DNA from: Minisyncoccota bacterium
Lineage (GTDB): Bacteria > Patescibacteriota > Minisyncoccia > Phycocordibacterales > UBA6065
Length of the DNA stretch: 64,000 nucleotides
Direction of reading: 5' to 3'
Assembly: GCA_035714745.1 (NCBI GenBank)
Contig: DASTLR010000008.1
Location: 7,394 to 71,393, forward strand
Shown here piece by piece: positions 30,682 through 56,256 of the stretch. The notes under the pieces were generated by a model, which had not been told where the DNA came from, did not search any database, and was given only the letters and a program-made list of their open reading frames with translations. Both the position numbers and the translations under genes were made by a program. Position 1 is the first letter of the stretch, and each line of letters starts with the position of its first letter.

Positions 30682-30719
30682 GTGTATTAGTATGATACAG
30701 TATTTCTATATATACCAAT

Positions 30720-32780: not shown

Positions 32781-32789
32781 GCGCCTATT

Positions 32790-33317
32790 CTACTCTACAT
32801 TCGTGAACACCTCCTGCACCTCTTCGTTCGCCTCCAGCGCCTCGACGAGCTTCTGTAGCAGCTCGAGGTCTGCGTCCGAGAGGTCGACGCTCATGGTGGC
32901 CTTCCATGCGGCGCCTTCGCGGGCAAATGCCCATGAGGCGCTGCCTGGGGCCGCCAGGGCGTAGCCGTTGTCGGCCAGGATGTGCTTGACCTCTTGGGCG
33001 GCTTTGTTCTTGTTCGTCGTCAGGGCCTCTATCATCAGGGCGCAGCCGCCCGGGCCGTACGCCTCATAGATGATGGATTCCAGGGCCTGGCCAGGCTCGG
33101 AGGCTTTCTTGACCGCGCGCTCGATGACCTCGTTCGTCACGTCCTCGGATTTGGCGCGGTCGATGAGGGCGCGCAGCGAGGGCGAGTTCCTGTCGCCTTT
33201 GACTTTCTGCGCCTCGGCGGAGATGAGCTTGGAATATTTAGAGTAGAGCTTAGACTTCGCTCCGTCGGTCTTGGCTTTCTTGTCCTTGATCTGCTTCCAT
33301 TTATTGTGTCCGGCCAT
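32790..33317 (-). CDS. yebC: YebC/PmpR-family transcriptional regulator (short form)
   Basis: MAGHNKWKQIKDKKAKTDGAKSKLYSK matches the YebC N-terminus. Syntenic with ruvC as in many bacteria. Confidence 0.8.
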   Translation of the reverse strand: MAGHNKWKQIKDKKAKTDGAKSKLYSKYSKLISAEAQKVKGDRNSPSLRALIDRAKSEDVTNEVIERAVKKASEPGQALESIIYEAYGPGGCALMIEALTTNKNKAAQEVKHILADNGYALAAPGSASWAFAREGAAWKATMSVDLSDADLELLQKLVEALEANEEVQEVFTNVE

Positions 33318-33364
33318 ATTTTTAACTTATGACTAACAACCTACAACGTACAACGGAAACCTGG

Positions 33365-34387
33365 CTATAACAACTTCTTGTTGTGGGTTGTCTGGTGTCT
33401 GTTGTCGGTTATCTTCATATGCCCATACGCCTTCTCGGTGACCTTGCGGCCGCGCGGGGTGCGCTCGATGAGGCCCAGCTGGAGGAGATATGGCTCGTGC
33501 ACCTCTTCGATGGTTGCTTCCTCCTCGGCTAGGGAGGCGGCCAGAGTGTTCAGGCCCACCGGCCCGCCGCCGAATTTGTCGATGAGGGTGCGCAGGAGCT
33601 CGCGGTCGGCCTGGGTCAGGCCCAGCTCGTCGATGCCGAGCATGGAGAGGGCGCGGTCGACGATCTCGACCGAGACGGTCGCCTTTTCCACCTGGGCCAG
33701 GTCGCGCACGCGCTTGAGGAGGAAGTTTGCCGTCCTCGGCGTGAAGCGGCTGCGCTGGGCGATCTTCTCCGACGATTTTTCGTCGATGTCGATCTTCAGG
33801 AGCTTGGCCGAGCGGTGGATGATGGTCTGGATCTCCTTGTCCGTATAGAATTCCAGCCTAAAGGTGCCGCCCGAGAAGCGCGAGCGCAGCGGAGCCGAGA
33901 GCATGGCCACGCGCGTGGTGGCGGCGATGAGGGTGAAGGGAGGGAGCTCCAGCTGGATGGTGCGGGCGCTCGGGCCCTTGCCGATGATGATGTCGAGCGA
34001 GCCCGACTCCATGGCGGGGTAGAGGACTTCCTCGATGTTCTTGTTCAGGCGGTGGATCTCGTCGATGAAGAGGATGTCGCCCGCAGCCAGGTTCGTCAGG
34101 ATGGAAGCCAGGTCGCCGACCTTCTCGATGGCCGGACCCGAGGTGGCCTTTAGCTGGGAGGCTGTCTCTTTGGCGATCAGATGGGCCAGGGTGGTCTTGC
34201 CCAGGCCGGGAGGGCCATAGAAAAGGACGTGCTCGGGCGGGTGCTTGCGCTCGGCGGCGGCCTTCAAAAGGACCTTGAGGTTCTCCTTGATGGTCTTTTG
34301 ACCGATATATTCGTCCCAGGACGACGGGCGCAGGGTCGTATCCAGGAAGAGCTCGTCGGCGCTGATGTTCTTGGGAGTACTTGACAT
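33365..34387 (-). CDS. ruvB: Holliday junction branch-migration ATPase RuvB
   Basis: LDEYIGQ...VLFYGPPGLGKTTLA...DEIHRL plus a winged-helix C-terminus. Confidence 0.95.
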   Translation of the reverse strand: MSSTPKNISADELFLDTTLRPSSWDEYIGQKTIKENLKVLLKAAAERKHPPEHVLFYGPPGLGKTTLAHLIAKETASQLKATSGPAIEKVGDLASILTNLAAGDILFIDEIHRLNKNIEEVLYPAMESGSLDIIIGKGPSARTIQLELPPFTLIAATTRVAMLSAPLRSRFSGGTFRLEFYTDKEIQTIIHRSAKLLKIDIDEKSSEKIAQRSRFTPRTANFLLKRVRDLAQVEKATVSVEIVDRALSMLGIDELGLTQADRELLRTLIDKFGGGPVGLNTLAASLAEEEATIEEVHEPYLLQLGLIERTPRGRKVTEKAYGHMKITDNRHQTTHNKKLL

Positions 34388-34705
34388 ATAGGATGCTTTG
34401 TGCTAAGATACCACCGTAGTCGATTCTCGGCCTTTTCCGATCATTCCAGGGTATAAATCTCTAAGCAATTAAACCTTCGGTTTACTGGGCGAAACTCATA
34501 GGACGCTCTGGTTAGACTCCGGTCTTCCTACTGGGGCTATCCTACGACCTCGCCCTAGCTTTCGATGCACTTCGCAAGTATTGCTTAGAGATTTATGCTC
34601 TGGAACTTTCTTTTTCCATACTACTCCTCCCATCTGCGGACGCAATACTCGTTTTCCAAGGGAACACGGGGCCGAAGGGCAGGCAACTAGCTCTCATTCC
34701 TCTCG

Positions 34706-35050
34706 TTACGCCGCCTTTTTGAATGACGACCTCTTTTCTTCGTTCAAGGCCTCTTCAAGGACGTGGTGAAGGCGCTGAAGCTCCATCTCGTGAGCCTTGT
34801 GCTCGTTCTGGAACTTCGCCAGCTCGCGCTGGGCGATGAGGAGCGCCGCTTTGTCGCGCTGCAGGTTCCTTTCGTGCTCGCGCTTCTTCTCCTCGGCTTC
34901 CTTGAGGCCGGCTTCAGAGGCGCGGATGGCTTCGTTGAGCTTTTGTACGGCGACTTCTTTCTCTTGGAATTCGTGCGCGCTCCTATCCATGGCCGCCTCG
35001 AGCGCGTGGACCTGCGCGGTGATGTTCTGTGATTGTATACCCATAGGCAT
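34706..35050 (-). CDS. Hypothetical coiled-coil protein (about 114 aa) co-transcribed downstream of pilB
   Basis: Start at the internal MPMGIQ 10 nt after the pilB stop, with a GGAGG ribosome-binding site. The upstream part of the tracked 196 aa ORF is a low-complexity Ser/Arg artefact. Confidence 0.45.
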   Translation of the reverse strand: MPMGIQSQNITAQVHALEAAMDRSAHEFQEKEVAVQKLNEAIRASEAGLKEAEEKKREHERNLQRDKAALLIAQRELAKFQNEHKAHEMELQRLHHVLEEALNEEKRSSFKKAA

Positions 35051-35060
35051 TCTTTGATTA

Positions 35061-36737
<1,677 letters not shown>

Positions 36738-36905
36738 GGAGATATTTTAGCACGACCCTGCTCGGCTTTGTGATTTTGGAGGGTATGGATATTCGCCTGC
36801 TGGCGAATTCCTCGTGCTCGCCCCGTCGGGCTCGCAAGCCCCTCCAAGATCACAAAGCCGAGCAAGGAAGCGGTGGAACGCCTTCGTGGACCTGCCGGAG
36901 CAGTA

Positions 36906-42243: not shown

Positions 42244-42316
42244 CCGCCCATAGCTCAGTCGGTAGAGCAGCTCCCTTTTAAGGAGAGGGTCCCAGGTTCG
42301 ATTCCTGGTGGGCGGA
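42244..42316 (+). tRNA. tRNA-Lys (anticodon UUU)
   Basis: Cloverleaf folded by hand: acceptor CCGCCCA/TGGGCGG, D arm GCTC-AGTCGGTA-GAGC, anticodon loop CUUUUAA, T loop TTCGATT. No encoded CCA. Confidence 0.8.
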
Positions 42317-42329
42317 CTAAGTGTTCCCT

Positions 42330-42803
42330 ATGAAGCGCCAGATCTGCATCCTCCTCCACGATATCCGCTCGGTCTACAACGTCGGGGCGATCTTTCGCAC
42401 CGCGGATGCGGTCGGCGTCTCAAAGATCTATCTGACGGGCTATTCGCCGACGCCTCTGGATCGCTTTGGCCAGCCGCGCTCTGATTTCGCCAAATGCGCC
42501 CTGGGCGCCGAGCGCTCTGTGCCGTGGGAATACGCCAAGACTCCGGACGATATCGTCGCAAGGCTCAAGGCCGATGGTTTTTCGCTCCTCTGCGTCGAAC
42601 AGGCTCCGCGATCGGTCGATTATAAAAAAGCGGAGCCGCCGGCCCGCTCGCTCGTGGTCTTTGGCAATGAGGTCGCAGGAATATCGAAAGAGTTGCTCGA
42701 GATCTGCGACGTCGTGGCCGAGATCCCTATGCGCGGCGAAAAGGAGTCGCTGAACGTCTCGGTCTCCGCCGGTATCGTCCTCTTTCGCTGGTTCGACAGA
42801 TAG
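42330..42803 (+). CDS. trmH: SpoU/TrmH-family RNA 2'-O-methyltransferase
   Basis: ILLHDIRSVYNVGAIFRTADAVGV...VFGNEVAGIS...ESLNVSVSAGIVLF matches the SPOUT motifs. Confidence 0.75.
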   Translation: MKRQICILLHDIRSVYNVGAIFRTADAVGVSKIYLTGYSPTPLDRFGQPRSDFAKCALGAERSVPWEYAKTPDDIVARLKADGFSLLCVEQAPRSVDYKKAEPPARSLVVFGNEVAGISKELLEICDVVAEIPMRGEKESLNVSVSAGIVLFRWFDR

Positions 42804-42812
42804 GCGTCCGCG

Positions 42813-43631
42813 CTAGTATGTCAGGGCGTCGACGACCTTGCCTTTGGCGTCGACGAGCTTGATGATGTCGCTCGAATCGCCCCACAGCTCGACGGTCTGG
42901 CCCAGGAATATCCTCCATTCGTTCGTGTAGAAGCCCGATTCTTCGCCGTGGCGGGCGGCGCACTCTTTGTAGGTCATCGTTCCCGAATACGCCGATTTGC
43001 GGAGGGCGGGGACGAGACGAGACGCGCCCGACAGATAGCTGCTGCAGGCGTCGACGCGGAAGTTGCCGCCCACAGGAGAGACGCCGGTCGAGACGACGAC
43101 GCGGTCTCCGGGAGCGAGCCAGATGTCCTGCTTGGCCGCCGACTGGGGCAGGGGAATAGTGCCGTCGAAATAGCCGCCTTCCAGGGTCAGGCCGGATATC
43201 TTGATAGGCGTGCTCGCTAGGCCGCTCGCCACTAGGCGCAGGTATTCGGCGTTCGGGTCCTTGGCCCGCGCTCCGGCCACGCCGTCGAACGACAGGCTGT
43301 GAGTCAGGACGGAGGTGGCGTGGATGCGCTCGGCCTCTTTCGATTTGGCGAAGAAGTTCTCGATGGCGGTCTCGGCGTGCCTGATGACTTCGGCAGGCGC
43401 GTCGGGCAGGTTGAGGGTCGCTTTTGCCGCGCTTGGCGCTCCGGCGTAGTAGCGGCCGTAGACCTCGCCGGTGTCGACCGGGGCCAGGGGCTTGATGTAC
43501 GCCCCTTCGTGAGCGCTCTGCCTATCGGCTCCGCCGTTCCAGAACCAGATGATGCCGATGACAGCCAGCCCGCCCAGGAGCCAGCCAAATTCTTCCCACA
43601 GCTTTGAAAAGAGGCCTTTGATGATATCCAT
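42813..43631 (-). CDS. Hypothetical membrane-anchored protein (start at the internal MDIIKGLF)
   Basis: TM helix WLLGGLAVIGIIWFW followed by an extracytoplasmic domain. The upstream Ala/Pro-rich extension of the tracked ORF is judged spurious. Confidence 0.45.
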   Translation of the reverse strand: MDIIKGLFSKLWEEFGWLLGGLAVIGIIWFWNGGADRQSAHEGAYIKPLAPVDTGEVYGRYYAGAPSAAKATLNLPDAPAEVIRHAETAIENFFAKSKEAERIHATSVLTHSLSFDGVAGARAKDPNAEYLRLVASGLASTPIKISGLTLEGGYFDGTIPLPQSAAKQDIWLAPGDRVVVSTGVSPVGGNFRVDACSSYLSGASRLVPALRKSAYSGTMTYKECAARHGEESGFYTNEWRIFLGQTVELWGDSSDIIKLVDAKGKVVDALTY

Positions 43632-43635
43632 GCCG

Positions 43636-44550
43636 CTAAGTATAGAGCTTCTGGTGGCCATCGCAATAATGTCCGCTCCTGCCGCCGACGACCAGGCGGC
43701 GGATGGTGCCGTGGCAGCCGCGCCGGCCGCAGGGCTCGCCGGTCCGGCGGTAGGCGTTATGACGGCCCTGAAAGGCGCCGCGCTCGCCATGGATGTTGCG
43801 ATAGTCTGACATCGAGTCTCCGCCGAAGTCGATGCCGCTCGCGAGCGTCTCGCGCATGGCAGAGAACATCAGAGGGAGCTTCGCGGCAGGGATGGCCCGC
43901 ACGATCGAGAGGGGATGGACGCCCGCGCGCCAAAGGATCTCGTCCGAATAGATGTTGCCGATGCCCGAGACCGTCTGGTGGTCCATGAGCACAGTCTTTA
44001 TCGGGCCCTCCGGTCGGGCAAGCAGGGCGGATTTGAAATCGGCTACAGTAAAATCCGGGTCGAGAGGCTCGGGTCCGTGCTCGGAAAGGTGGACCGATTG
44101 GGACATAGAGGCTGTCTCTACCAGGGTGACCTTGGCGAATTTGCGCATATCGCAGAGGGCCAGGCTGTAGCCGTTGGTGAAATTCAGGATGAAATGGACG
44201 AAGCGATTGAAGGGGTCGTCTCTCAATGGTCCCGGATCGGTCGCGACCCATGCTTTGCTTTTCTGCACGTACCTGCCGTACATGACGTGCCCCGTCATCT
44301 TCATATGGATGAGGATAGTCTTGCCATTCGACAGATGGATTAGCACGTTCTTGCCGCGGCGCGAGGTGTCGGCGATGATCGCTCCACGCACGGCTTTTCG
44401 GAAGCGGGCAAAGAACGCTGGGTCGGCGATGTTGTCCTTGCCGACGTGGAAGGCACTGCCATAGTCAGTCCAAGCGTCCTTGATGGTCAGGCCCAGGGCC
44501 AGCTTTTTGATGCCATTGACCGTCGTCTGTACTTCAGGCAGTTCGGGCAT
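43636..44550 (-). CDS. mutM: Formamidopyrimidine-DNA glycosylase (Fpg/Nei family)
   Basis: MPELPEVQT N-terminus, an H2TH domain and a C-terminal CxxC zinc finger. Confidence 0.85.
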   Translation of the reverse strand: MPELPEVQTTVNGIKKLALGLTIKDAWTDYGSAFHVGKDNIADPAFFARFRKAVRGAIIADTSRRGKNVLIHLSNGKTILIHMKMTGHVMYGRYVQKSKAWVATDPGPLRDDPFNRFVHFILNFTNGYSLALCDMRKFAKVTLVETASMSQSVHLSEHGPEPLDPDFTVADFKSALLARPEGPIKTVLMDHQTVSGIGNIYSDEILWRAGVHPLSIVRAIPAAKLPLMFSAMRETLASGIDFGGDSMSDYRNIHGERGAFQGRHNAYRRTGEPCGRRGCHGTIRRLVVGGRSGHYCDGHQKLYT

Positions 44551-44584
44551 ATGGCAAAGGCTATCGCACCTTGGCCTTATTTAC

Positions 44585-44610
44585 AAAAAAAAGAGCGCGC
44601 GGGCGCTCTT
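44585..44610 (-). terminator. Rho-independent terminator ending the Mur ligase / small-ORF transcript
   Basis: The minus strand reads AAGAGCGCccgcGCGCTCTT followed by TTTTTTTT. Confidence 0.6.
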
Positions 44611-44627
44611 GTCGAGATGGTCGGCGG

Positions 44628-44822
44628 CTAGTGCCGCGAACGATATATCATGACGGCGACCGCCGCCGCAAAGGCGAGGGCCGCGATGAGGACGAGATAT
44701 CCCTTGCGGAAGACGGCGATGATGTCGCCCATGCCTTCGTCTGATTCGGCGTCTCGGCCGAGATGATCCTGTTCGAAATGGTCGTGGAGGGGCATTCGGG
44801 GAGGGGTGAGGGTCTGCGCCAA
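44628..44822 (-). CDS. Hypothetical small membrane protein
   Basis: 64 aa with a C-terminal TM helix, 14 nt downstream of the Mur ligase gene. Confidence 0.25.
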   Translation of the reverse strand: MAQTLTPPRMPLHDHFEQDHLGRDAESDEGMGDIIAVFRKGYLVLIAALAFAAAVAVMIYRSRH

Positions 44823-44835
44823 GACTACTCCCGCT

Positions 44836-46104
44836 TCACCGCTTCGTCAATTTCTCCAACTCCTCGCGCGCGACTGCGGCGTCGCTCCAAGGGACCTTGG
44901 TGTTCTTTGGCCCCATGATGTAGGGATCGGTGCCCTTGCCGGTGATGAGCACGGCGTCGCCTGGGCGGGCCATGCGCAGGGCGGTATGGATGGCCTCGCG
45001 GCGGTCCATGACGAGGTAGGGGGTCTTTGTGGTGATGGCGCTGGCCATGTCCGCGACGATCTTCATTGGGTCGTCGTCGTAGGGGTCCTCGTTGGTCAGG
45101 ATGATCTCGTCGCAGTCGCGCTCGGCGATGCGGGCCATCTCGTCGCGCTTCCAGACGTCGCGGCCGCCGCCTGTATTGCCCAAGACGCAGATGCGGCGCG
45201 AGCCCCGGTAGACTTTGTAAAGCTTTTCGAGCGAGTCCGGCGTGTGGGCATAGTCGACAACGACTGTGAAGTCCTGACCGGCGTCCACCTTCTCCACTCT
45301 GCCGCGGATTCCTGCCAGCTTCTCGATGGCCCGCTTGCAGGCCTCGAGCGTCACGCCGAGCTCCTGGGCCATATAGATCGCCGCTAGCTCGTTCAGTATA
45401 TTGAATTCGCCCGAGAGGTTCGAATGGATTTTCGTTCCATGCACGGTCATGTCGAAGCCCTCCTTGTGGAGCTCGTAGGGCTGGGCGTCGGCCAGGGAGT
45501 AGCCGATGCGCAGGTCGAAGTCCTTGGCCATGAAGCGAGGCGTTTCCTTGTCCTCTGCGTTCGCCACCAGGATGCGCTCAGGCTTGCGGGAGCGCGAGAC
45601 GGCCTCGGCGATGGCGAGCTTGGCCTGTACGTAGCTCTCGTACGAGCCGTGCGCCTCGATGTGCTCGGGGGCCAGGTTGGTAAAGATCAAGCCATCGAAG
45701 TCGATGAACCTATGGCGGTGCAGGGCTGCTCCCTGGGAAGTGACCTCGACGACGGCATGGCTGCAGCCCGCGTTGACGGCCCGGCGCAGGAAGCGCTGGA
45801 GGAACATGCGCCCCGGCATGGACATCTTGAAGAGGTTCTCCTCGCTCCTCTCGCCGACCTTGAAGCGGATGGTGTTCGAGAGGGCGGTCTTGTACCCGGC
45901 CTCTTCGAGGATGGCGTTCAGGATCTCGGTGACGGACGACTTGCCCTTGGTGCCCGTGACGGCGATGACGGTCAGGCGCCGCGAAGGGAAGCGATATGCC
46001 AGAGCGGCAACGAGCGCCATGGAATAGTGATAGAACGGCTGGGCCCAGGCAAAGACCTTTCGTGGTATGAGGGCGCGGACGCGGTAGAGGATGGAGTCGA
46101 GCAT
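44836..46104 (-). CDS. murE: Mur ligase family protein, MurE-like (UDP-MurNAc-tripeptide synthetase)
   Basis: P-loop TGTKGKSS, a Mur ligase central domain and a MurE-like C-terminus (ITGKGTDPYIMGPK...WSD..VARE). The short N-terminus leaves MurE versus another Mur ligase unresolved. Confidence 0.6.
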   Translation of the reverse strand: MLDSILYRVRALIPRKVFAWAQPFYHYSMALVAALAYRFPSRRLTVIAVTGTKGKSSVTEILNAILEEAGYKTALSNTIRFKVGERSEENLFKMSMPGRMFLQRFLRRAVNAGCSHAVVEVTSQGAALHRHRFIDFDGLIFTNLAPEHIEAHGSYESYVQAKLAIAEAVSRSRKPERILVANAEDKETPRFMAKDFDLRIGYSLADAQPYELHKEGFDMTVHGTKIHSNLSGEFNILNELAAIYMAQELGVTLEACKRAIEKLAGIRGRVEKVDAGQDFTVVVDYAHTPDSLEKLYKVYRGSRRICVLGNTGGGRDVWKRDEMARIAERDCDEIILTNEDPYDDDPMKIVADMASAITTKTPYLVMDRREAIHTALRMARPGDAVLITGKGTDPYIMGPKNTKVPWSDAAVAREELEKLTKR

Positions 46105-46107
46105 GGT

Positions 46108-46674
46108 TTATTTGCCTAGGATCTTGAGGGCTTTCTTGACTCTCTCGCCAGTGTCGGTGATGGATTGATCAACTGATTTGAGGGCTTCGCGAGCCTCGGC
46201 GTGCTTGAAGCCCAGGGCTTTAAGGGCCTCTAGGGCGTCGACTTCGTCGCGGAGCGAGATGCCGTCGCTCTCTTCGCCGCCGAACTTGCCCTTGAGCTCA
46301 AGGACGATCTTGTCGGCGAGCTTCTTGCCCACGCCGGAGACCTTGGTCAGGTGAGAGGTGTCGCCGGTCGAGACGGCCTTGCGGATGTTCGCCACCGACG
46401 AGACGTTCAGGATGCCCAGGGCGGTCTTTGGCCCGATGCCCGAGACCGAGATGAGGAGCTCGAAGAAGCCGAGCTCGTCCTTTGTAGGGAAGCCGAAAAG
46501 GGTGTGGGCGTCCTCGCGCACGGCCAGGTGGGTCCAGAGGGATATCTCGCGGCCCTCGCGCGCCTGTTCGGCTGTCGCCGCTGTGACGAAGGCCTTGTAG
46601 CCGACGCCGGCCACGTCCACGACCAGGGCGCGCTCCTCCTTGTCTATGATGGTGCCTTTTATATGGGTGATCAC
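46108..46674 (-). CDS. ruvA: Holliday junction DNA helicase RuvA
   Basis: ITHIKGTIIDKEERALVVDVAGVGY, an HhH domain (SGIGPKTALGIL) and a C-terminal domain III. Probable GTG start within the tracked ORF. Confidence 0.85.
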   Translation of the reverse strand: MITHIKGTIIDKEERALVVDVAGVGYKAFVTAATAEQAREGREISLWTHLAVREDAHTLFGFPTKDELGFFELLISVSGIGPKTALGILNVSSVANIRKAVSTGDTSHLTKVSGVGKKLADKIVLELKGKFGGEESDGISLRDEVDALEALKALGFKHAEAREALKSVDQSITDTGERVKKALKILGK

Positions 46675-47115
46675 GCGCCCAGTATAGCAAATACCACGCA
46701 AAATACCGTCCGGAGACGGTATTTCGGGCCTGCTTCAGCTTCGATGCTGTACGGGGGCTTTCGCTCCACAGGTCTAGCAAGTATAGGGCGTCGGCAGGGC
46801 TTGAGTCGATATGAAATAAGTTATTGAATTTTCTTTATCATTTCTTTATCGCTGATTTCCTAGATTCGCCATCCTATCTATACTGGGAGGGGACGTAGAA
46901 GGAGTAGAGGCGGCATGATAAGGAGGTTCAGACTCCTGCCGCTTGCCGTGGTAATCGTTCAAAGAGTCGAGCATATTTCAGAATATTCCCACAGAGGCGA
47001 CGATGAATATTGGCCTTTGGTCCGGCAGAACGTGACGGTCGTTCTGAGACGTGTCGGCAACGGCGCCACACATTTCTATAGCGTCATGGATTAGCGCGCG
47101 GTTCAGGCCCTAAAC

Positions 47116-47144
47116 TTGCATTTAGAGCGCTCTGCTGGTAGAGT
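47116..47144 (+). promoter_or_regulatory. Putative rpsT promoter (TTGCAT, 17 nt spacer, TAGAGT)
   Basis: Sequence elements sit 12 nt upstream of the rpsT ATG. Confidence 0.4.
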
Positions 47145-47155
47145 AACCGCCACAT

Positions 47156-47419
47156 ATGGCAATCACATCTTCAGCGAAAAAGGCGCTCAGGGCTTCGAAA
47201 AAGAAGCGCGTCTTCAATATCAGGCACCGCGACGCCGTCTCTGATGTCGTCAAAGAAATCAAGAAGCTGGTGGCGGCAGGCAACAAGGGCGAGGCCATGA
47301 AGCTCCTCCCAAAGGCCTACGCAGAGCTCGACAAGGCGGCAAAGACCAATTACCTGAAAGCCAACACGGCATCCCGCAAGAAATCCCGCCTCTCGGCCCT
47401 GATCAGGAAGGCGAAATAA
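47156..47419 (+). CDS. rpsT: 30S ribosomal protein S20
   Basis: MAITSSAKKALRASKKKRVFNIRH, the S20 signature. Confidence 0.9.
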   Translation: MAITSSAKKALRASKKKRVFNIRHRDAVSDVVKEIKKLVAAGNKGEAMKLLPKAYAELDKAAKTNYLKANTASRKKSRLSALIRKAK

Positions 47420-47446
47420 GAAAGCAAGAAAGCGGATCAAGGCAAG

Positions 47447-47480
47447 AAAAATCCCCGGCTCTCCGGGGATTTCTCTATTC
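47447..47480 (+). terminator. Rho-independent terminator after rpsT
   Basis: The stem ATCCCCGG, loop ctct, stem CCGGGGAT is followed by a TTCTCTATTC run. Confidence 0.6.
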
Positions 47481-47638
47481 AGGAATCGACCCTTACAGGG
47501 TCAGTGTCCTGTTTGGATTTTCTTTTCGCTCGGAGAGCTCAAGAAAATCTCAAACAGGCTTCTATTCCTGCACGGACGCCCGCTGGGCGTCCTCTTGAGC
47601 ACCATATGAAAAGATCCCTTGTGAGGGACCTTTTCATA

Positions 47639-47713
47639 TGGTGCTCTCGGCAGGAATCGAACCTGCATTTCTTCCTTCGCAGGGAAGTGTCCTATCCATT
47701 GAACGACAAGAGC
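47639..47713 (-). tRNA. tRNA-Arg with anticodon GCG (genomically encoded G34), CCA encoded
   Basis: Hand-folded cloverleaf: acceptor GCTCTTG/CGAGAGC, a perfect 5-bp anticodon stem CTTCC/GGAAG, loop CUGCGAA, T loop TTCGATT and a 3' ACCA. Confidence 0.7.
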
Positions 47714-47776
47714 GCGAAACCGCCTCTGACTGCTCTAACTTACAGGAAAACGGCCAAAAGTAAACTCGGCGCCGGA

Positions 47777-48235
47777 TCAGAAGCCCAGCCTCTCGAAGAC
47801 GGTATGCATGAAATTCTGGGGGAACTTCTCTGATCTCAGGTGCCGCTCGAGGTGCTCGCGGAGGTCGTCGAGGCCGTCATGCATGATCGGCACGGTGATC
47901 AAGGGGACGATGGGCTTCTTCGAGCGTAGGACCAGGCGCGGGCCGTGGTGGTGCTCCTCGTCGACCGAGAACGATTCGAGCTCGGCGTAGGGGAAGAGGG
48001 TCTTGCCGATGACGACGCCCCTGTCCGTGACCTCGACCGAGACGACGTTCGGCGGCCGCGAGGCGAAGACCGCCAGGGTGAAGGCCGCGATGGCCAAGAC
48101 GACGCCGAAGAGGATGTCGCCCAGGATGATGGCCGTGACGACCAGGGCGGCGGTGATGATGCCGACGGTCCAGTACCAGTCGTTCGACTTTTCGAAGTGG
48201 ATGTATTCAGGCGTCTGCCACGAGAATTTCGCCAT
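47777..48235 (-). CDS. Hypothetical membrane protein (two TM helices plus a cytoplasmic domain)
   Basis: Hydrophobic hairpin WYWTVGIITAALVVTAIILGDILFGVVLAIAAFTLAVF followed by a soluble domain. Confidence 0.45.
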   Translation of the reverse strand: MAKFSWQTPEYIHFEKSNDWYWTVGIITAALVVTAIILGDILFGVVLAIAAFTLAVFASRPPNVVSVEVTDRGVVIGKTLFPYAELESFSVDEEHHHGPRLVLRSKKPIVPLITVPIMHDGLDDLREHLERHLRSEKFPQNFMHTVFERLGF

Positions 48236-48314
48236 GCGGGAATTATACCACCAATCTTTGCCCCGCGGTCGGCTTTGTTGTAAGTTGTAGGGGCGGCAAA
48301 GAGCGATACTTGAC

Positions 48315-48401
48315 GGATAGGTGCCGGAGTGGTCTAACGGAACAGTCTTGAAAACTGTCGTCCCTTTACGGGGACCGTGAGTTCGAATCTCACCCTATCC
48401 G
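48315..48401 (+). tRNA. tRNA-Ser (anticodon UGA), type II with a long variable arm
   Basis: Acceptor GGATAGG/CCTATCC, anticodon stem ACAGT/ACTGT, loop CUUGAAA, variable arm CGTCCCTTTACGGGGACC and a T loop TTCGAAT. Confidence 0.8.
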
Positions 48402-48412
48402 CATAACGTCAT

Positions 48413-48817
48413 ATGAGACTCCTAGGCATCGATTACGGCAAGAAGAGAGTGGGCGTGGCCCTGTCTGACGACAAGGGCTTGATGGCGTTCCCAAAGGCGG
48501 TTTTGCCGAACGACAACTATCTCTTTACCGAGGTGCGCCGGCTGATCGAGTCGAACGAGATCGATACGGTGGTGGTAGGGGAGTCGAAGGATTACGCTAT
48601 GAGGGACAATTCCATTATGTCCAAGGCGCGCGCGTTCGCCGATGAGCTCAAGCGCGAGCTCGACGTCGTAGTGGTATACGAGCCGGAGCTCCTGACCTCG
48701 CACCAGGCCGCGCAGACCGGGCACGCTTTGGGAAAAACGGATATGATAGACGCGTCTGCGGCCGCGATTATCTTGCAAAGCTACATAGACAGGAAGAAGG
48801 AAGGGGAGAGAATTTAG
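48413..48817 (+). CDS. ruvX: Putative pre-16S rRNA nuclease / Holliday junction resolvase-like YqgF (RuvX)
   Basis: MRLLGIDYGKKRVGVALSD matches the YqgF/RuvX N-terminal motif. Confidence 0.85.
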   Translation: MRLLGIDYGKKRVGVALSDDKGLMAFPKAVLPNDNYLFTEVRRLIESNEIDTVVVGESKDYAMRDNSIMSKARAFADELKRELDVVVVYEPELLTSHQAAQTGHALGKTDMIDASAAAIILQSYIDRKKEGERI

Positions 48818-48842
48818 AATCTGGGATTTAGAATTTAGAATC

Positions 48843-49250
48843 TTGAACATGATTTCATACGACGATTTCGCAAAGGTGGAGATAAAGGCAGGCAAGATCC
48901 TCTCGGCCGAAAAGGTTCCCGAGACCGACAAGCTGCTCAAGCTCTCGGTCGATTTCGGCCCGCTGGCCCAGACCGTCGCTACGCTCTCGGTCGACGGCGC
49001 CCCGGCGGCCGAAGTGCAGATGACCGAGATGAAGCGCGACGTTCGCCAGATTGTCTCGGGCATCTCGATGTATTTCCCTGACCCTCAGGCCCTCGTCGGC
49101 AGGAAGTGCATGTTCGTCACCAACCTGGAGCCGCGCACCATCAAAGGCCTGCAGTCGAATGGCATGCTTTTTGCTCTGTCGACGAACGACGGCAAGTTCT
49201 CGCTCCTCGAGCCAGGCGCCGATATCCCCGAGGGCACCAAGGCCAAATAA
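48843..49250 (+). CDS. tRNA-binding protein (CsaA/Trbp111-type OB fold)
   Basis: FAKVEIKAGKILSAEKVPETDKLLKLSVDFG matches the MetRS-C/EMAP-like tRNA-binding domain. Confidence 0.7.
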   Translation: MNMISYDDFAKVEIKAGKILSAEKVPETDKLLKLSVDFGPLAQTVATLSVDGAPAAEVQMTEMKRDVRQIVSGISMYFPDPQALVGRKCMFVTNLEPRTIKGLQSNGMLFALSTNDGKFSLLEPGADIPEGTKAK

Positions 49251-49251
49251 T

Positions 49252-49872
49252 ATGTTCGAATTCCTGCAGCCGCAGCACCTGATCGCCGTCGCGGGCCTGG
49301 CCGGCGTCATCGCCGCCGTTTTCGCCGAGTCGGGGCTATTCTTTGGCTTCTTTTTGCCGGGCGATTCGCTCCTCTTTACCGCGGGCCTGGTGGCTTCGCA
49401 GGGCGCGCTCGATATCTGGTGGCTGGTCATAGGCTGCGCCATAGCCGCCATAGTGGGCGACAGCGTGGGCTACGCATTCGGCAAGAGGGTGGGACCCGCG
49501 CTCTTCTCGCGCGAGGATTCTCTCTTCTTCCATAAAAAGCATGCCGAACGGGCCAAGGCCTTCTATGGCCGGCACGGCCGCAAGGCGATCGTCCTGGCCC
49601 GCTTCGTGCCGATCGTCAGGACCTTTGCCCCTATCGTGGCGGGCGTCGGCGGCATGGCCTATCGCACCTTTGTCGCTTTTAACGTCATCGGCGGCGTGGT
49701 ATGGACCTTCCTTCTGACCCTGGCCGGCTATTTTCTGGGTCGGGCCTTTCCCCAGACCGAGAGGTATCTCTCGTATATCGTCGTCGGCATCATCGCCGTC
49801 TCGCTCGTGCCTGTAGCGGTCGAATGGCTCCGCGGCCGCGCCGCCGCTCGAAAGGCCGCTGCGGACCTGTAG
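49252..49872 (+). CDS. DedA/SNARE-associated family membrane protein
   Basis: ESGLFFGFFLPGDSLLFTAG...RFVPIVRTF, typical of DedA. Internal start of the tracked ORF. Confidence 0.8.
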   Translation: MFEFLQPQHLIAVAGLAGVIAAVFAESGLFFGFFLPGDSLLFTAGLVASQGALDIWWLVIGCAIAAIVGDSVGYAFGKRVGPALFSREDSLFFHKKHAERAKAFYGRHGRKAIVLARFVPIVRTFAPIVAGVGGMAYRTFVAFNVIGGVVWTFLLTLAGYFLGRAFPQTERYLSYIVVGIIAVSLVPVAVEWLRGRAAARKAAADL

Positions 49873-49884
49873 TATAATCTGTGG

Positions 49885-50880
49885 GTGAATTCTTTCATCA
49901 AAAAGGCGTTTCCCGTCCCTCGCGCCCTCATCATGGCCGACGTCTCGGTCGATACGAACGACGGCGAGCTGCGCTTCTTTGAATTCTCGCGCAAGGCGGG
50001 CACGCTCCGCCCGAAACGCTGCGGCGTCCTGGAGTTCCCGCGCACCCATGGCCCGGGCAGCGAGGAGAACGCCGCCCAGGCGGCTGCCGCCCTCAAGAAG
50101 TTCGCCGAGAGGTACGGCTATCAGACTGTCCAGTGCGTCATCCACGAGGGCGACGCCTATATCTTCAAGCAGAAGGTCCCGACGACCGATCCCTCGCTCC
50201 TGCGCGCCGCCATCGAAGCCTCGCTCGAAGAGAACGTGCCGATGCCTCCCGCCGAGGCGATCTTCGAGTATGACGTCCTCGCCATAGACAAGGTCCGCGG
50301 AGAGAGCACGGTCGTAGTCTCGGCCGTCTCGGAGAAGGTGGTCGAGAGATATCGAGCCCTCCTCGAGTCTGGGACGCTCGCGCCCGTCTCGTTCGAGACC
50401 GAGTCGCACGCCATCGCCCGCGCCTCTATACGCAAGGGAGACCAGGCTACCCACGCCGTCCTTTGCATCAAGGGCCACCATACCGTGGTCTTTATCGCCG
50501 AGAGGGGCAAGGTCTCGTTCAGCTCCTCTATAGAGGTGGGGTCGGCCGACATCGAGGCCGCCAGCGCCAAGGACCCCGGCTCATTCGACGCCCTCTTGCC
50601 CGTGTTCTCGACGCTGCAGGACGAGCTTGGAAAGATATTGACCTATCATAAGGCCGCCGCCAAGAAAGAAGGGGTCGAGCAGGATATCGCCGATGTCATC
50701 CTGCTGGGCAGCTGCGCCCGCATCCCGGGGTTCTCGCGCTATATATCCTTGGCGTCCAAGCTGCCCGTGCGCGTCGGCTCGGTCTGGGCGAACGCTCTGT
50801 CGCCCGAGAGCGAGGTGCCCGACCTGGATGAAAAGAGCTCGCTCGACTATGCGGCCCTGATCGGCATGTATCTGAACTGA
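49885..50880 (+). CDS. pilM: Type IV pilus assembly protein PilM (actin-like ATPase fold)
   Basis: 331 aa with the PilM architecture, directly followed by pilN- and pilO-like genes. Confidence 0.7.
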   Translation: MNSFIKKAFPVPRALIMADVSVDTNDGELRFFEFSRKAGTLRPKRCGVLEFPRTHGPGSEENAAQAAAALKKFAERYGYQTVQCVIHEGDAYIFKQKVPTTDPSLLRAAIEASLEENVPMPPAEAIFEYDVLAIDKVRGESTVVVSAVSEKVVERYRALLESGTLAPVSFETESHAIARASIRKGDQATHAVLCIKGHHTVVFIAERGKVSFSSSIEVGSADIEAASAKDPGSFDALLPVFSTLQDELGKILTYHKAAAKKEGVEQDIADVILLGSCARIPGFSRYISLASKLPVRVGSVWANALSPESEVPDLDEKSSLDYAALIGMYLN

Positions 50881-50881
50881 T

Positions 50882-51418
50882 ATGCTCACCTTTCTCCCGC
50901 GCACATACAGGATCGAGGTCGAACGCGAATATCGCCGCCGCGTCTATGCGGTCGCCGCCTGGCTCTTGGCGTTGCTCATGCTCGTCGGGGCGGCCCTGGT
51001 CCTGCCGACGTACGCGAGGCTCTCTTCCGAGAAGGCCGCGGCCGAGGCCGCACTGCGGGCGGCGTCTCAGTCCGCCGGCGGGGATGCGAGCCTCGTCGAT
51101 ACGCGGTTGGCCGACCTTCAGGACAAGGCCAAGGCCCTCGACGACCTGGCTGCAAGGCGGAGCCTTGTCTGGGCCGTGGAGCGGGTCGCGGCCGCTCGGG
51201 AGCAGGCCGGCGTCTCCATCACCGGGCTCGGCATAAAAAGAGGAGGGGGCGCCGGCTCGATCAGCGTCTCGGGCACGGCATCGTCCAGAGAGGCGCTCGT
51301 CGCCTTTACCAAGGCCCTCCAGGCGGAGCCGTCGTTCAAGGACGTCTCCTTGCCGGTATCCGCCCTGGCAAAGAGCGTCAGCTTGCCGTTCTCGCTCGGC
51401 ATCGACACGAATCTCTGA
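50882..51418 (+). CDS. pilN: PilN-like bitopic protein
   Basis: N-terminal TM helix plus a coiled coil, in the pilM-pilN-pilO gene order. Confidence 0.5.
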   Translation: MLTFLPRTYRIEVEREYRRRVYAVAAWLLALLMLVGAALVLPTYARLSSEKAAAEAALRAASQSAGGDASLVDTRLADLQDKAKALDDLAARRSLVWAVERVAAAREQAGVSITGLGIKRGGGAGSISVSGTASSREALVAFTKALQAEPSFKDVSLPVSALAKSVSLPFSLGIDTNL

Positions 51419-51422
51419 TCCC

Positions 51423-51974
51423 ATGTATATCCGCACCAGCTACAAAGCGTCTCTCGTCATCGCTCTCGCCGCCGCGGTCGCGCTGGCGGCGGCATGGGGC
51501 TTTATCGCCTACCGCTCTTCCGTCCTGCGGGATCAGATCGTCGGCCTCGAGGAGAAGGCGGCGGCGGCTTTGGCTCGCGGGCAGCGGGCGCAGGAGGCTC
51601 GCGCAGCCTTGCGCGAGACTGGGGCTGCTATCCGCTCCGTAGATGCCCGCTTCCTCTCAAAGGACGACATCCCAGGTTTTATCAGCCTAGTAGAAAGCCA
51701 AGGCGCCGCTGCCGGGGTAAAGGCTGACGTCGGCTCGATCGACCTGGACGAGAAGGGCGACCTCTCGGAGCTCAAGACCCTGCGCTTGCGCCTGACCGCC
51801 AAGGGGGCATGGAAGGACTGCGTGGCCTACGCCGCCGCTCTCGAGGACCTGCCGTACGCCGTCCAGGTGGACGCGCTGGCCCTTTCCAAGGCGGCGGGGG
51901 CGGCAGGCGTCTGGAATATGACCGTCGAGATGACGGCCTTGGTAGACTTACAGAGAACCGATGAGACGATTTAA
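51423..51974 (+). CDS. pilO: PilO-like bitopic protein
   Basis: N-terminal TM helix, a coiled coil and a C-terminal PilO-like domain, in operon position. Confidence 0.45.
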   Translation: MYIRTSYKASLVIALAAAVALAAAWGFIAYRSSVLRDQIVGLEEKAAAALARGQRAQEARAALRETGAAIRSVDARFLSKDDIPGFISLVESQGAAAGVKADVGSIDLDEKGDLSELKTLRLRLTAKGAWKDCVAYAAALEDLPYAVQVDALALSKAAGAAGVWNMTVEMTALVDLQRTDETI

Positions 51975-52236
51975 CCTTCACATCCGCAGGCTAGGAGAGG
52001 ATCCCGCTTCCGACTGGCATCGATGCCTGGCGCTGTTCGCCGCATGCCTAGTCTTTGCGGCGCTCGTCGATGGGGCTCTCTATCTGACCCTGGCGCGCGG
52101 GGCGTCCGAGCTTCAGGCCGTCTCGGCGATCCAGGCGCCTGCCGCGCCGTCGACGCCCGTGCGCCTTGGCGCCGCGGCAGCCGAAAAGGCGCCGAGGACG
52201 GTCTCTCCGGCCGCCCAGAGAGACCCATCGCTCTAG
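51961..52236 (+). CDS. Hypothetical small membrane protein (possible PilP-like anchor)
   Basis: 91 aa with one TM helix, overlapping the pilO stop. Confidence 0.3.
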   Translation: MRRFNLHIRRLGEDPASDWHRCLALFAACLVFAALVDGALYLTLARGASELQAVSAIQAPAAPSTPVRLGAAAAEKAPRTVSPAAQRDPSL

Positions 52237-52280
52237 GCTTGCCTGGACAATGTCCGGCGAAAGCGCTTTGATGGGCCGAC

Positions 52281-52353
52281 GCCCCCGTAGTTCAATGGAT
52301 CAGAACACTGGACTTCTAAGCCAGTTATGTTGGTTCGATTCCAACCGGGGGCA
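52281..52353 (+). tRNA. tRNA-Arg (anticodon UCU)
   Basis: Acceptor GCCCCCG/CGGGGGC, anticodon loop CUUCUAA and a T loop TTCGATT. Confidence 0.75.
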
Positions 52354-52370
52354 CACGCGAAATGTACGCG

Positions 52371-52394
52371 AAAAGCCGGCATGTGCCGGCTTTT
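52371..52394. terminator. Bidirectional rho-independent terminator between convergent tRNA genes
   Basis: AAAA-GCCGGC-atgt-GCCGGC-TTTT. Confidence 0.6.
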
Positions 52395-52397
52395 CAG

Positions 52398-52473
52398 TGG
52401 TGCGCCCTGAGGGACTTGAACCCCCGACCTTCTCAGTGTAAATGAGCTGCTCTACCAACTGAGCTAAGGGCGC
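52398..52473 (-). tRNA. tRNA-Val (anticodon UAC), CCA encoded
   Basis: Acceptor GCGCCCT/AGGGCGC, D arm GCTC-AGTTGGTA-GAGC, anticodon loop UUUACAC and a 3' ACCA. Confidence 0.8.
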
Positions 52474-52602
52474 ATGGTATATGGCTGCGATGAGCTACGA
52501 CAGAGAAACAATAACGGATTTCGCCCGAAAACTCAAATAAACGCCGTTTTCTTGCTCATTTTTGGCTCGTATGTTAGATTGGTGTCCTATCACGCAACCC
52601 GC

Positions 52603-53040
52603 ATGGAAAGCAAAGTAATCACCTCTCCGGTAGACATGAAGGCCCGAGTAGCCCTCGGCCTCCGCTCGGGCGACACCGTCCGCGTCTGGCAAAAGATCAA
52701 GGAGGGCGACAAGACCCGCCTCCAGGCCTTCGAGGGCCTCATCCTCTCCCGCAAGCACGGCGACGAAGCCGGCGGCACCTTCACCGTCCGCAAGGTCATC
52801 GACGGCGTCGGCGTCGAGAGGATCTTTCCGCTCTATTCGCCCCTCATCGACGAGGTCGAGGTCATCCGCAGGTCCAAGGTCCGCAGGTCGAAGCTCTACT
52901 TCGTCCGCGAGAAGGCGGCCAAGGCCGTCAGGAAGCAGATGCGAAACCTCCGCGCCGAGAAGCCGGGCAAGGACACCAAGGCAGGCAAGCTAGAGGAGCC
53001 AGAGGCTCCTGCAGCAGCTCCAGAGGCGCCGGCGAAGTAA
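52603..53040 (+). CDS. rplS: 50S ribosomal protein L19
   Basis: [38 protein letters not shown] matches L19. Internal start of the tracked ORF. Confidence 0.9.
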
Positions 53041-53060
53041 TCTCCATACAGCGCAAACGA

Positions 53061-53085
53061 AAAACAGCCCGCGGGCTGTTTTTCT
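53061..53085 (+). terminator. Rho-independent terminator after rplS
   Basis: AAAAA-CAGCCCGCGGGCTG-TTTTTC. Confidence 0.65.
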
Positions 53086-53095
53086 CTGTCTTGGG

Positions 53096-53177
53096 TGCGC
53101 GGAAGAGGACTTGAACCTCCATGCCTTGCGGCGCTACCACCTCAAGGTAGTGTGTCTGCCAATTCCACCATCCGCGC
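53096..53177 (-). tRNA. tRNA-Leu (anticodon GAG), type II
   Basis: Acceptor GCGCGGA/TCCGCGC, a 3-bp D stem, anticodon stem CTACC/GGTAG, loop UUGAGGU, a 13-nt variable arm and a T loop TTCAAGT. Confidence 0.75.
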
Positions 53178-53258
53178 ATGTATGTCGAACCGTCCCGACG
53201 TGCGGCCATAATAGCCGATTGCTCACATTTTATCAATATCCGTCCTATACTAGGCGGT

Positions 53259-53735
53259 ATGAACGAAAAGAAGCTGCGGGTCATATTCGTGGCGAGCCTC
53301 TGCCTCAAGGCCTTGGGCGCCGCTCTCCAGATCGGCCTGGGCTCGCTTCTGCTCGTCACGGGCAGGGTCAGTTCCCTCATAGCCGCGGCCGCCGCGAACG
53401 AGCTTATCGAGGATCCTAACGATTTCTTTGCCCGCCATGCCGCGTCGGCGCTCTCGCACTTCTCGCCCCACCTGCAATACGTCGGGGCCGCGTACCTCCT
53501 CCTCCACGGCGCGGCAAAGGTCGTCCTGATCTGGGCGCTGATAAAAGAGAAGCTCTGGGCCTATCCCGCCTCGCTCGCCCTCTTCTCGCTCTTCATCGTC
53601 TACCAGCTGGTCCATGCCACGTGGGGAAGCCTGTTCCCCTTGGCTGCTTTCGCCGCCTTCGAAGTGTTCCTCCTCTGGCTCATCTGGCACGAATACCACT
53701 ACGTCCTCCGCAAGCGCGGACTGCCAATAGAATAG
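53259..53735 (+). CDS. DUF2127-like membrane protein
   Basis: Four hydrophobic helices, start at the internal MNEKK. The N-terminal extension of the tracked ORF overlaps tRNA-Leu. Confidence 0.45.
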   Translation: MNEKKLRVIFVASLCLKALGAALQIGLGSLLLVTGRVSSLIAAAAANELIEDPNDFFARHAASALSHFSPHLQYVGAAYLLLHGAAKVVLIWALIKEKLWAYPASLALFSLFIVYQLVHATWGSLFPLAAFAAFEVFLLWLIWHEYHYVLRKRGLPIE

Positions 53736-53824
53736 GGGAGGGACGGCCAGAGCTCGATTTTACGGCCTGAATCTGATATAACTGTCTTGCTCCGACAGCC
53801 CGTTCCCGCCGCGCGCGAGCAGCA

Positions 53825-53897
53825 TGGTGCCTATAGTTTAGTGGTAAAACTCCGGATTGTGGTCCCGGCATTGTGGGTTCGATTCCCACTAGGCACC
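53825..53897 (+). tRNA. tRNA-His (anticodon GUG) with a G(-1) extra base; boundary of the AT-rich island
   Basis: G-1 plus acceptor GTGCCTA/TAGGCAC, anticodon loop UUGUGGU, T loop TTCGATT and discriminator C. Confidence 0.75.
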
Positions 53898-55987: not shown

Positions 55988-56256
55988 GTGATTAGAAATA
56001 AACGATTAATCCCGTGGAAAGCTCCCACACAAAAAACCTGCCACAGGTAGGAACCGAAGTCCCTCGTGAAGGTTTCCCCGCACGGCCAGTTAGACAACCC
56101 TATGACAGGCTCTTTATGTCTAACTGGACTTATAGCCATGCTCTGGAGAAAACTCCAGAGGTTAGGCTCATGAACGCTATTTAGTTGTAAGGTAATTATG
56201 CTCTTTTTCATCCTTTTTGCCAAAATGACTTTGAAACGCTGACGCCTATACGTTTT

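Follow-up and report, generated by a model that had tools for sequence, protein, structure and literature searches.

The 318-nt spacer upstream of ruvB is likely to be an independent gene whose product is a structured, non-coding RNA some 200 nt long; its predicted transcript would be antisense to both ruvB and pilB. The existence of an independent, structured RNA gene on the plus strand is itself well supported by conservation, promoter and strand evidence. The family to which it belongs has more than 120 members, found in uncultured Parcubacteria/Paceibacteria (CPR), with about 37 covarying pairs and a near-perfect promoter, and is absent from Rfam. CPR bacteria, or Patescibacteria, make up a large share of bacterial diversity, have tiny genomes and cannot be grown alone, and little is known of their RNA biology. 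The locus offers a testable case of minimal genomes using one piece of DNA for both a protein gene and an RNA gene.

Locus, inverted repeat and predicted fold

The window is the whole 64-kb stretch of DNA that was analysed, and positions refer to it unless a locus is named. The spacer (34388-34705) extends from the start of ruvB to the stop of the next minus-strand ORF, and GC content falls to 0.48-0.49 at the element compared with approximately 0.62 in its flanks. A sequence-only reading of this region had reported a perfect 17-bp inverted repeat, and this was found exactly at 34453-34469 and 34580-34596. The repeat is in fact longer, forming part of 26-nt arms (34444-34469 and 34580-34605) that are 92% complementary and 110 nt apart. 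From shuffles of the window, 0.09 matches to the 17-bp repeat at ≤3 mismatches were expected, and none of 100 shuffles gave two. Both mismatches in the 26-nt arms are G-U on the plus strand and C-A on the minus strand.

The nested stems described in the same reading were likewise present in the spacer. When folded, the 171-nt core was far more stable than shuffled sequence on both strands, with the plus strand the stronger (z = -9.35 for plus, -6.97 for minus), and the entire 318 nt gave z = -5.6 and -4.0, respectively. In the predicted fold, a long closing stem (P1) encloses three hairpins (H1, H2 and H3) that meet in a tight four-way junction. The parts of the RNA and the neighbouring genes are listed in Table 1; the 112-aa coiled-coil ORF next to the spacer had no Pfam match.

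Table 1. Features of the spacer, its neighbours and related loci. Positions are those of the window unless a locus is named; parts of the RNA follow the predicted fold.
Feature	Position	Strand	Remarks
ruvB	33365-34387	-	340 aa; RuvB_N, AAA_lid_4, RuvB_C; divergent from the RNA; first codons hold the -35 box of the RNA promoter
-35 box TTGACA	34381-34386	+	overlaps ruvB codons 1-2; CAT of TTGACAT is the ruvB ATG
Extended -10 TGCTAAGAT	34401-34409	+	TG at 34401-34402; hexamer TAAGAT at 34404-34409
Predicted primary transcript, ~200 nt	34416-34615	+	ends inferred from promoter geometry and U-run
5' leader of predicted transcript	34416-34443	+	length not conserved
P1 closing stem, 5' arm TTCCAGGGTATAAATCTCTAAGCAAT	34444-34469	+	inner 13 nt conserved in sequence; outer part covaries
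H1, small hairpin UAAACC-UUC-GGUUUA	34470-34484	+	variable; absent from a few members
H2, long irregular hairpin	34487-34555	+	near-invariant core; distal hairpin covaries
H2 core	AGGAC 34500-34504, CUGG 34508-34511, CUGG 34531-34534, UAUCCU 34538-34543	+	
H3, hairpin GCUU.CGA-loop-UCG.AAGU	34558-34579	+	stem base CUUU/AAAG conserved in the family
P1 closing stem, 3' arm ATTGCTTAGAGATTTATGCTCTGGAA	34580-34605	+	
U-rich tract CUUUCUUUUUCC	34606-34617	+	directly 3' of P1; presumed intrinsic termination site
8-codon ORF MEKESSRA	34593-34619	-	behind GGGAGGAG (34624-34631); overlaps P1 3' arm and U-run
Coiled-coil ORF	34706-35044	-	112 aa; convergent with the RNA
pilB-like T2SSE ATPase	35061-36737	-	convergent with the RNA
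-10-like boxes: pilB TGCTAAAAT-N6-ATG; ruvC TAGAAT-N6-ATG; yebC TAAGTT-N6-ATG; tyrS TATATA-N5-ATG	start regions 36738-36767, 33318-33347, 32781-32810, 30690-30719		
Insert upstream of the RNA in L115	L115 387-1145		DUF3800 gene 387-1052 (+); DUF3800-IX RNA RF02968 1077-1145 (-)
RNA-like elements	L022 3658-3836, L025 1-153, L032 3584-3760	-	position and orientation as in the main family

Homologues in genomes and metagenomes

A RuvB search with one genome per species yielded 80 loci. The 18 closest of these came from Parcubacteria, Paceibacteria, Kaiserbacteria and similar MAGs (RuvB 67-78% identical), and each of the 18 has a homologue of the element immediately upstream of ruvB, encoded on the other strand. 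The covariance model R1, for which these 18 elements were the input, matched 19 of the genome loci at 89-147 bits, and also L026 (43 bits) and L034 (30 bits), where the copies lie in the same place and have a wholly different P1 sequence followed by a U-run. Metagenomes were scanned with a pattern derived from the conserved H2 core, which gave at least 120 loci, and among the matches listed R1 aligned full-length, at 62-142 bits, in about 105 of 120. Groundwater samples are among the sources of these loci, which have contig names such as Hain-H41/H43 and Ga0209541/2.

At three further loci (L022, L025 and L032; RuvB approximately 60% identical), a consensus promoter is followed by a closing stem and three hairpins of different sequence. 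With R1 these possible distant relatives scored 9-14 bits, and with the covariance model R2 14-20 bits, values similar to those of plain hairpins. They have a conserved H1 loop, CUAUCUUUU, in common. L026 additionally contains a simple hairpin (2438-2506) whose arms hold the inner-P1 words of the family, CUCUAAG and CUUAGAG; it scored 24.6 bits with R2, through the stem only.

Covariation and conservation of the fold

Covariation was assessed in an alignment (A3) of 98 sequences, 96 of them distinct, in which 44 pairs were scored. Paired cells made up 92.9% of the total, compared with 77.8% after shuffling and 43-54% when partners were slid by 1-3 columns. Compensatory changes on both sides occurred at 37 of the 44 pairs, and the observed measures were reached by none of 500 shuffles. 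The fold is conserved as a structured non-coding RNA, with pairing beyond both the shuffled and the slid controls. Changes on both sides were seen at 21 of 24 pairs in P1 (helix 1; 95% of cells paired), 7 of 11 in H2 (helix 3; 94% paired) and 8 of 8 in H3 (helix 4), and RNAalifold recovered the same helices. When members were folded individually, 84 of 98 formed a closing stem with exactly three hairpins, leaving a median of 6 unpaired junction nucleotides.

The model aligned H1, the H2 tip and H3 poorly. In 73-89 distinct sequences these parts nevertheless keep their hairpin form, with a fold that is better than in shuffled versions. H1 occurred in 73 distinct sequences and retained at least 3 bp in 89 of 92 cases; it is missing in three members (L018, L083 and L137). 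The native fold of H3 was better than shuffled in 91 of 95.

In sequence, conservation is concentrated in P1 at its inner 13 bp (AUCUCUAAGCAAU / AUUGCUUAGAGAU), in H3 at the stem base, at the junction and in the H2 core. Within this core, AGGAC..CUGG pairs with CUGG..UAUCCU, and 92 of the 96 distinct sequences retain a U-G wobble. The loops of the hairpins either vary or are UUCG-like caps. As conservation resides in duplexes and the junction and not in loops, an RNA that binds protein or adopts a tertiary fold is likelier than a small RNA that acts by seed pairing. The sequence-only reading had held that a functional RNA would be called into question by the lack of an Rfam match and of conservation or covariation in relatives; an Rfam match is indeed lacking (see below), whereas conservation and covariation are both strong.

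Coding strand, promoter and 3' end

The minus strand had been taken as the transcribed one, a view that the family contradicts. Over the 44 pairs of the 96 distinct sequences, G-U pairs numbered 532 against 81 A-C (6.6 to 1 in favour of the plus strand), a count made on an alignment that had been fitted to the plus-strand model. The structure was 92.9% paired in the plus sense versus 82.1% in the ruvB sense.

A sigma-70-type promoter precedes the element. In the window it reads TTGACA-17-TAAGAT with a TG extension, matches at 10 of 12 positions and is the sole sigma-70-like site in 34200-34900. Among the matches listed, a promoter of the form TTGACA-17-TRTGnTAnnnT was present at all 122 loci with enough upstream sequence; of these, 118 have TTGACA without a mismatch, 109 a spacer of 17 nt and 113 the TG extension, and TAnnnT occurs in all 122. 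TTGACAT lies over the ruvB ATG in 106 of these 122 listed loci. Members of the family differ in how far P1 lies from the -10 box (5 to 214 nt), which places the 5' leader outside the conserved unit; trimming at P1 may yield the mature RNA. Judged from sequence, the family is probably highly expressed.

A U-run (at least 6 of 7) is found at the 3' arm of P1 or immediately beyond it in 56 of 98 members and a separate hairpin with U-run terminator in 9, while 33 have no obvious terminator under strict criteria. The long P1 probably serves as the terminator in our model of the transcript and possibly doubles as an RNase III processing stem. Together, the G-U asymmetry, the promoter and the terminators indicate that the RNA gene lies on the plus strand, antisense to ruvB and pilB.

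This bears on the proposal that the spacer encodes a small RNA or a leader/attenuator for ruvB. The small RNA stands, and the leader/attenuator falls with the finding that the structure belongs to the other strand: the ruvB strand has no U-run or terminator-like site after the stem and no Shine-Dalgarno sequence to sequester. We consider any minus-strand product, be it a ruvB leader/attenuator or a small RNA, possibly with MEKESSRA as a leader peptide, very unlikely. Such a product would draw on the good fold of the minus strand, on the strong Shine-Dalgarno-like word before the tiny ORF and on the fact that the spacer would be the ruvB 5' untranslated region if read-through from pilB feeds ruvB. 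It is opposed by the 6.6 to 1 asymmetry, by the near-invariant U-G that becomes a C-A mismatch on that strand, and by the lack of a conserved minus-sense promoter, of a U-run after the stem, of a ruvB Shine-Dalgarno sequence and of conservation of the tiny ORF.

The elements of that ORF are all present as described: GGGAGGAG (34631-34624, minus strand), a gap of 4 nt, and ATG...TAA from 34619 to 34593. Under permissive criteria, a Shine-Dalgarno-like word with a start codon was found at 17 of 122 loci among the matches listed, with unrelated peptides, and we rejected the 8-codon ORF as a gene, regarding it as a chance feature. No conserved ORF was found on the RNA strand.

A leader of a downstream gene on the RNA strand was also considered and rejected. 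Among the matches listed, the first ORF 3' of the RNA was convergent in 93 of 104 loci and pilB-like in 77 of 104; the few same-strand neighbours (dapB-like, TPR, phosphatase-like) are mutually unrelated.

An element acting at the DNA level is extremely unlikely, whether a MITE-like repeat, a recombinase or cruciform site, or a terminator that works in both directions between pilB and ruvB. It would account for the 26-bp terminal inverted repeats, the dip in GC content and the terminator-like appearance of P1 with its U-run, but would leave the strand-asymmetric G-U pairs, the three covarying inner hairpins and the dedicated promoter unexplained. The element is also single-copy, with no second copy in the 64-kb window, and its syntenic position is shared by more than 120 loci. 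Its fixed site and the lack of a target-site duplication (flanks GATCA and CTTTC) led us to reject a mobile element or MITE. Phage origin was rejected as well, as the one match of the H2-core pattern in viral contigs was not a match to the R1 model.

Relation to known RNAs

At the gathering score, Rfam gave nothing at the element in searches of the whole window and 12 related loci. The spacer and seven diverse members were also compared with 4227 Rfam 15 models, with no match at E ≤ 10. ARAGORN found no tRNA or tmRNA at the element, and the Rfam models for tRNA, tmRNA and Y-RNA gave no match either. These searches bear out the earlier failure to match the region by eye to SRP RNA, tmRNA, 6S or RNase P RNA. 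A description of the RNA family was not found in the searchable literature.

A divergent 6S-type RNA, sequestering RNA polymerase by mimicry of an open promoter, was evaluated separately. The general outline of 6S RNA was reportedly laid out by Barrick et al. in 2005. With 6S RNA (RF00013 and related) the element has in common its length (~160-200 nt), ends paired in a long closing stem, a long distal stem and a strong, predicted housekeeping promoter. However, eight diverse members gave no match to the Rfam 6S models at E ≤ 10, and there is no single-stranded central bubble. The strands that would form the bubble are stable, covarying hairpins, one of them dispensable, around a junction with a median of 6 unpaired nucleotides, and members without H1 leave only about 2 nt on the would-be template side. 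We rejected 6S RNA as an identity, and a divergent relative is most improbable.

Other comparisons were closer in kind than in detail. Like LOOT (RF03000) and raiA, this is an orphan stand-alone structured RNA with strong covariation and a distribution confined to uncultured lineages; it is a different family and, unlike most such RNAs, has a near-fixed position and a promoter that runs over a protein start codon. A four-helix junction closed by pairing of the ends is also seen in tRNA-like cloverleafs, YrlA (Y RNA) and tmRNA, but the element has no T-loop or D-loop motifs and its closing stem is 26-30 bp. We class the RNA as a new family within a general type that is already known, that of stand-alone structured bacterial small RNAs; its fixed overlap of promoter and start codon is unusual. 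The alignment and covariance models allow it to be annotated in metagenomes and searched for in metatranscriptomes.

Genomic linkage to ruvB

Among the 105 metagenome loci listed, 99 have ruvB adjacent to and divergent from the RNA and another five end at contig boundaries, giving 99 of 100 testable loci. The linked loci span RuvB identities of 56-82%. The one listed exception, L115, keeps the RNA promoter, the structure and the pilB neighbour, and has an insert upstream of the RNA with a DUF3800 gene and a DUF3800-IX RNA (Table 1). The genome loci with pilB upstream of ruvB in the same orientation are exactly those in which the RNA or an RNA-like element occurs. At L026, L034, L022, L025 and L032 the elements adjoin ruvB though their promoters are 100-230 nt from its start.

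We searched for signals that might drive ruvB itself. No consistent site for a conserved ruvB-sense promoter was found between pilB and ruvB, either inside or beyond the RNA gene. A TAnnnT box lies 7 nt before the ruvB ATG in 40% of loci, about the frequency expected by chance for an AT-rich spacer. Boxes resembling a -10 element at 7 and 12 nt before the ATG were rejected as ruvB signals, since the opposite promoter, with its palindromic TA/TGCTA, and the AT-rich spacer account for them. The box at 7 nt could nonetheless mean that ruvB has a leaderless mRNA instead of being read through from pilB. In the window, ruvB has neither an upstream Shine-Dalgarno sequence nor a -10-like box 5-7 nt before its ATG.

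Most window genes that were checked also have no Shine-Dalgarno sequence, but their ATG is preceded, at 5-7 nt, by a -10-like box (Table 1). This pattern suggests that leaderless mRNAs may be widespread in the host organism. In a separate observation, the word CAATTGACA, with a palindromic core that places TTGAC on both strands, was seen 60-130 nt past the RNA 3' end in L001-L004, L017, L093, L108 and L169; it could be the -35 box of a neighbouring gene in either direction.

Possible roles of the RNA

Our tentatively preferred reading is that the RNA locus acts in cis on ruvB-yebC-ruvC, holding ruvB down or uncoupling it from pilB. We draw this mechanism purely from the geometry of the locus. 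RNA polymerase bound at the RNA promoter would cover the ruvB initiation region, and transcription of the RNA gene would collide head-on with any transcript arriving from pilB. The RNA would also be fully complementary to a read-through transcript from pilB and could serve as its antisense partner. ruvB would be fed either by pilB read-through, which we assume, or by a weak promoter overlapping that of the RNA; in either case, a strong outward promoter on the ruvB start should oppose ruvB expression. If so, the RNA may show how CPR bacteria control Holliday-junction resolution genes.

The arrangement has parallels in known antisense systems. GadY of E. coli is a cis-encoded antisense small RNA opposite the gadX-gadW spacer. 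RNA-OUT of IS10 is an antisense RNA whose outward-reading promoter, pOUT, is placed inside the beginning of the adjacent gene. The element resembles GadY as a small folded RNA with its own opposite-strand promoter in the spacer of two co-directional genes, and RNA-OUT in the embedding of its promoter in a neighbour's start, reading outward. A promoter of its own opposite the neighbouring gene, as defines a cis-encoded antisense RNA, was found at 122 of 122 loci among the matches listed. In contrast to both systems, the RNA beside ruvB is much larger, has a conserved junction and duplexes and shows no sequence relation to either. The predicted RNA covers neither the ruvB start codon nor any ribosome-binding site, and the likeness is one of layout, read from sequence.

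The conserved four-way junction, the fixed U-G wobble and the conserved duplexes go beyond what antisense action alone would need. It is quite conceivable, if short of probable, that the RNA is a purely trans-acting, housekeeping-type RNP RNA unrelated to ruvB, its linkage historical and frozen by the overlap of promoter and ORF. In favour are a near-consensus promoter of constitutive appearance, a terminator belonging to the gene itself, and a pattern of conservation that favours duplexes and the junction over loops. L115, where a DUF3800 gene stands in place of ruvB and the RNA promoter and structure are kept, points the same way, and since pilB-ruvB synteny is common to the whole clade, the linkage may reflect inheritance. 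Set against this, ruvB stays beside the RNA in 99 of the 100 testable loci listed, at RuvB identities of 56-82%, whereas the 3' neighbour is less constant (pilB-like in 77 of the 104 listed). The five loci with promoters 100-230 nt from ruvB still adjoin it, and no partner protein was identifiable.

The preferred action in cis on ruvB and a trans-acting role are compatible and not mutually exclusive. Overlap of the promoter with the ruvB ORF could by itself be enough to preserve the synteny. Taken together, the sequence features suggest a stable, probably protein-binding RNA whose promoter and transcript may also oppose ruvB in cis.

We also considered a protein-binding junction RNA that would act in trans and be tied to the Holliday-junction machinery (ruvB-yebC-ruvC), as a four-way-junction decoy or as an assembly scaffold for Ruv proteins. 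The idea is an analogy with 6S RNA, which mimics an open promoter, and we regard the whole proposal as a long shot. If true, a Ruv decoy or scaffold would be a new, CPR-specific class of RNP RNA.

Other features of the locus and window

In the window and in L002, L127, L129, L164, L169, L174 and L135, pilB and the RNA are separated by small ORFs of 103-127 aa, which were K/E-rich where the sequence was read. The group that includes the L002 ORF has seven members, which form one BLAST cluster, and the window ORF (34706-35044) and that of L135 are BLAST singletons.

The YebC/TACO1 homologue between ruvB and ruvC (32790-33317, minus strand) is just 175 aa long, and it covers only the first 57 of 160 positions of the Pfam model for the second and third domains. 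In the identical contig L081, the public gene call breaks this homologue into products of 37 and 116 aa.

Seven tRNA genes, on both strands, are spread over about 12 kb of the window (42244-53897; Rfam tRNA matches of 49-69 bits). A full-length LOOT RNA (RF03000) lies at 56049-56168 on the minus strand, with 84.1 bits against a gathering score of 46.4, and is a second orphan structured RNA in the same 64-kb window.
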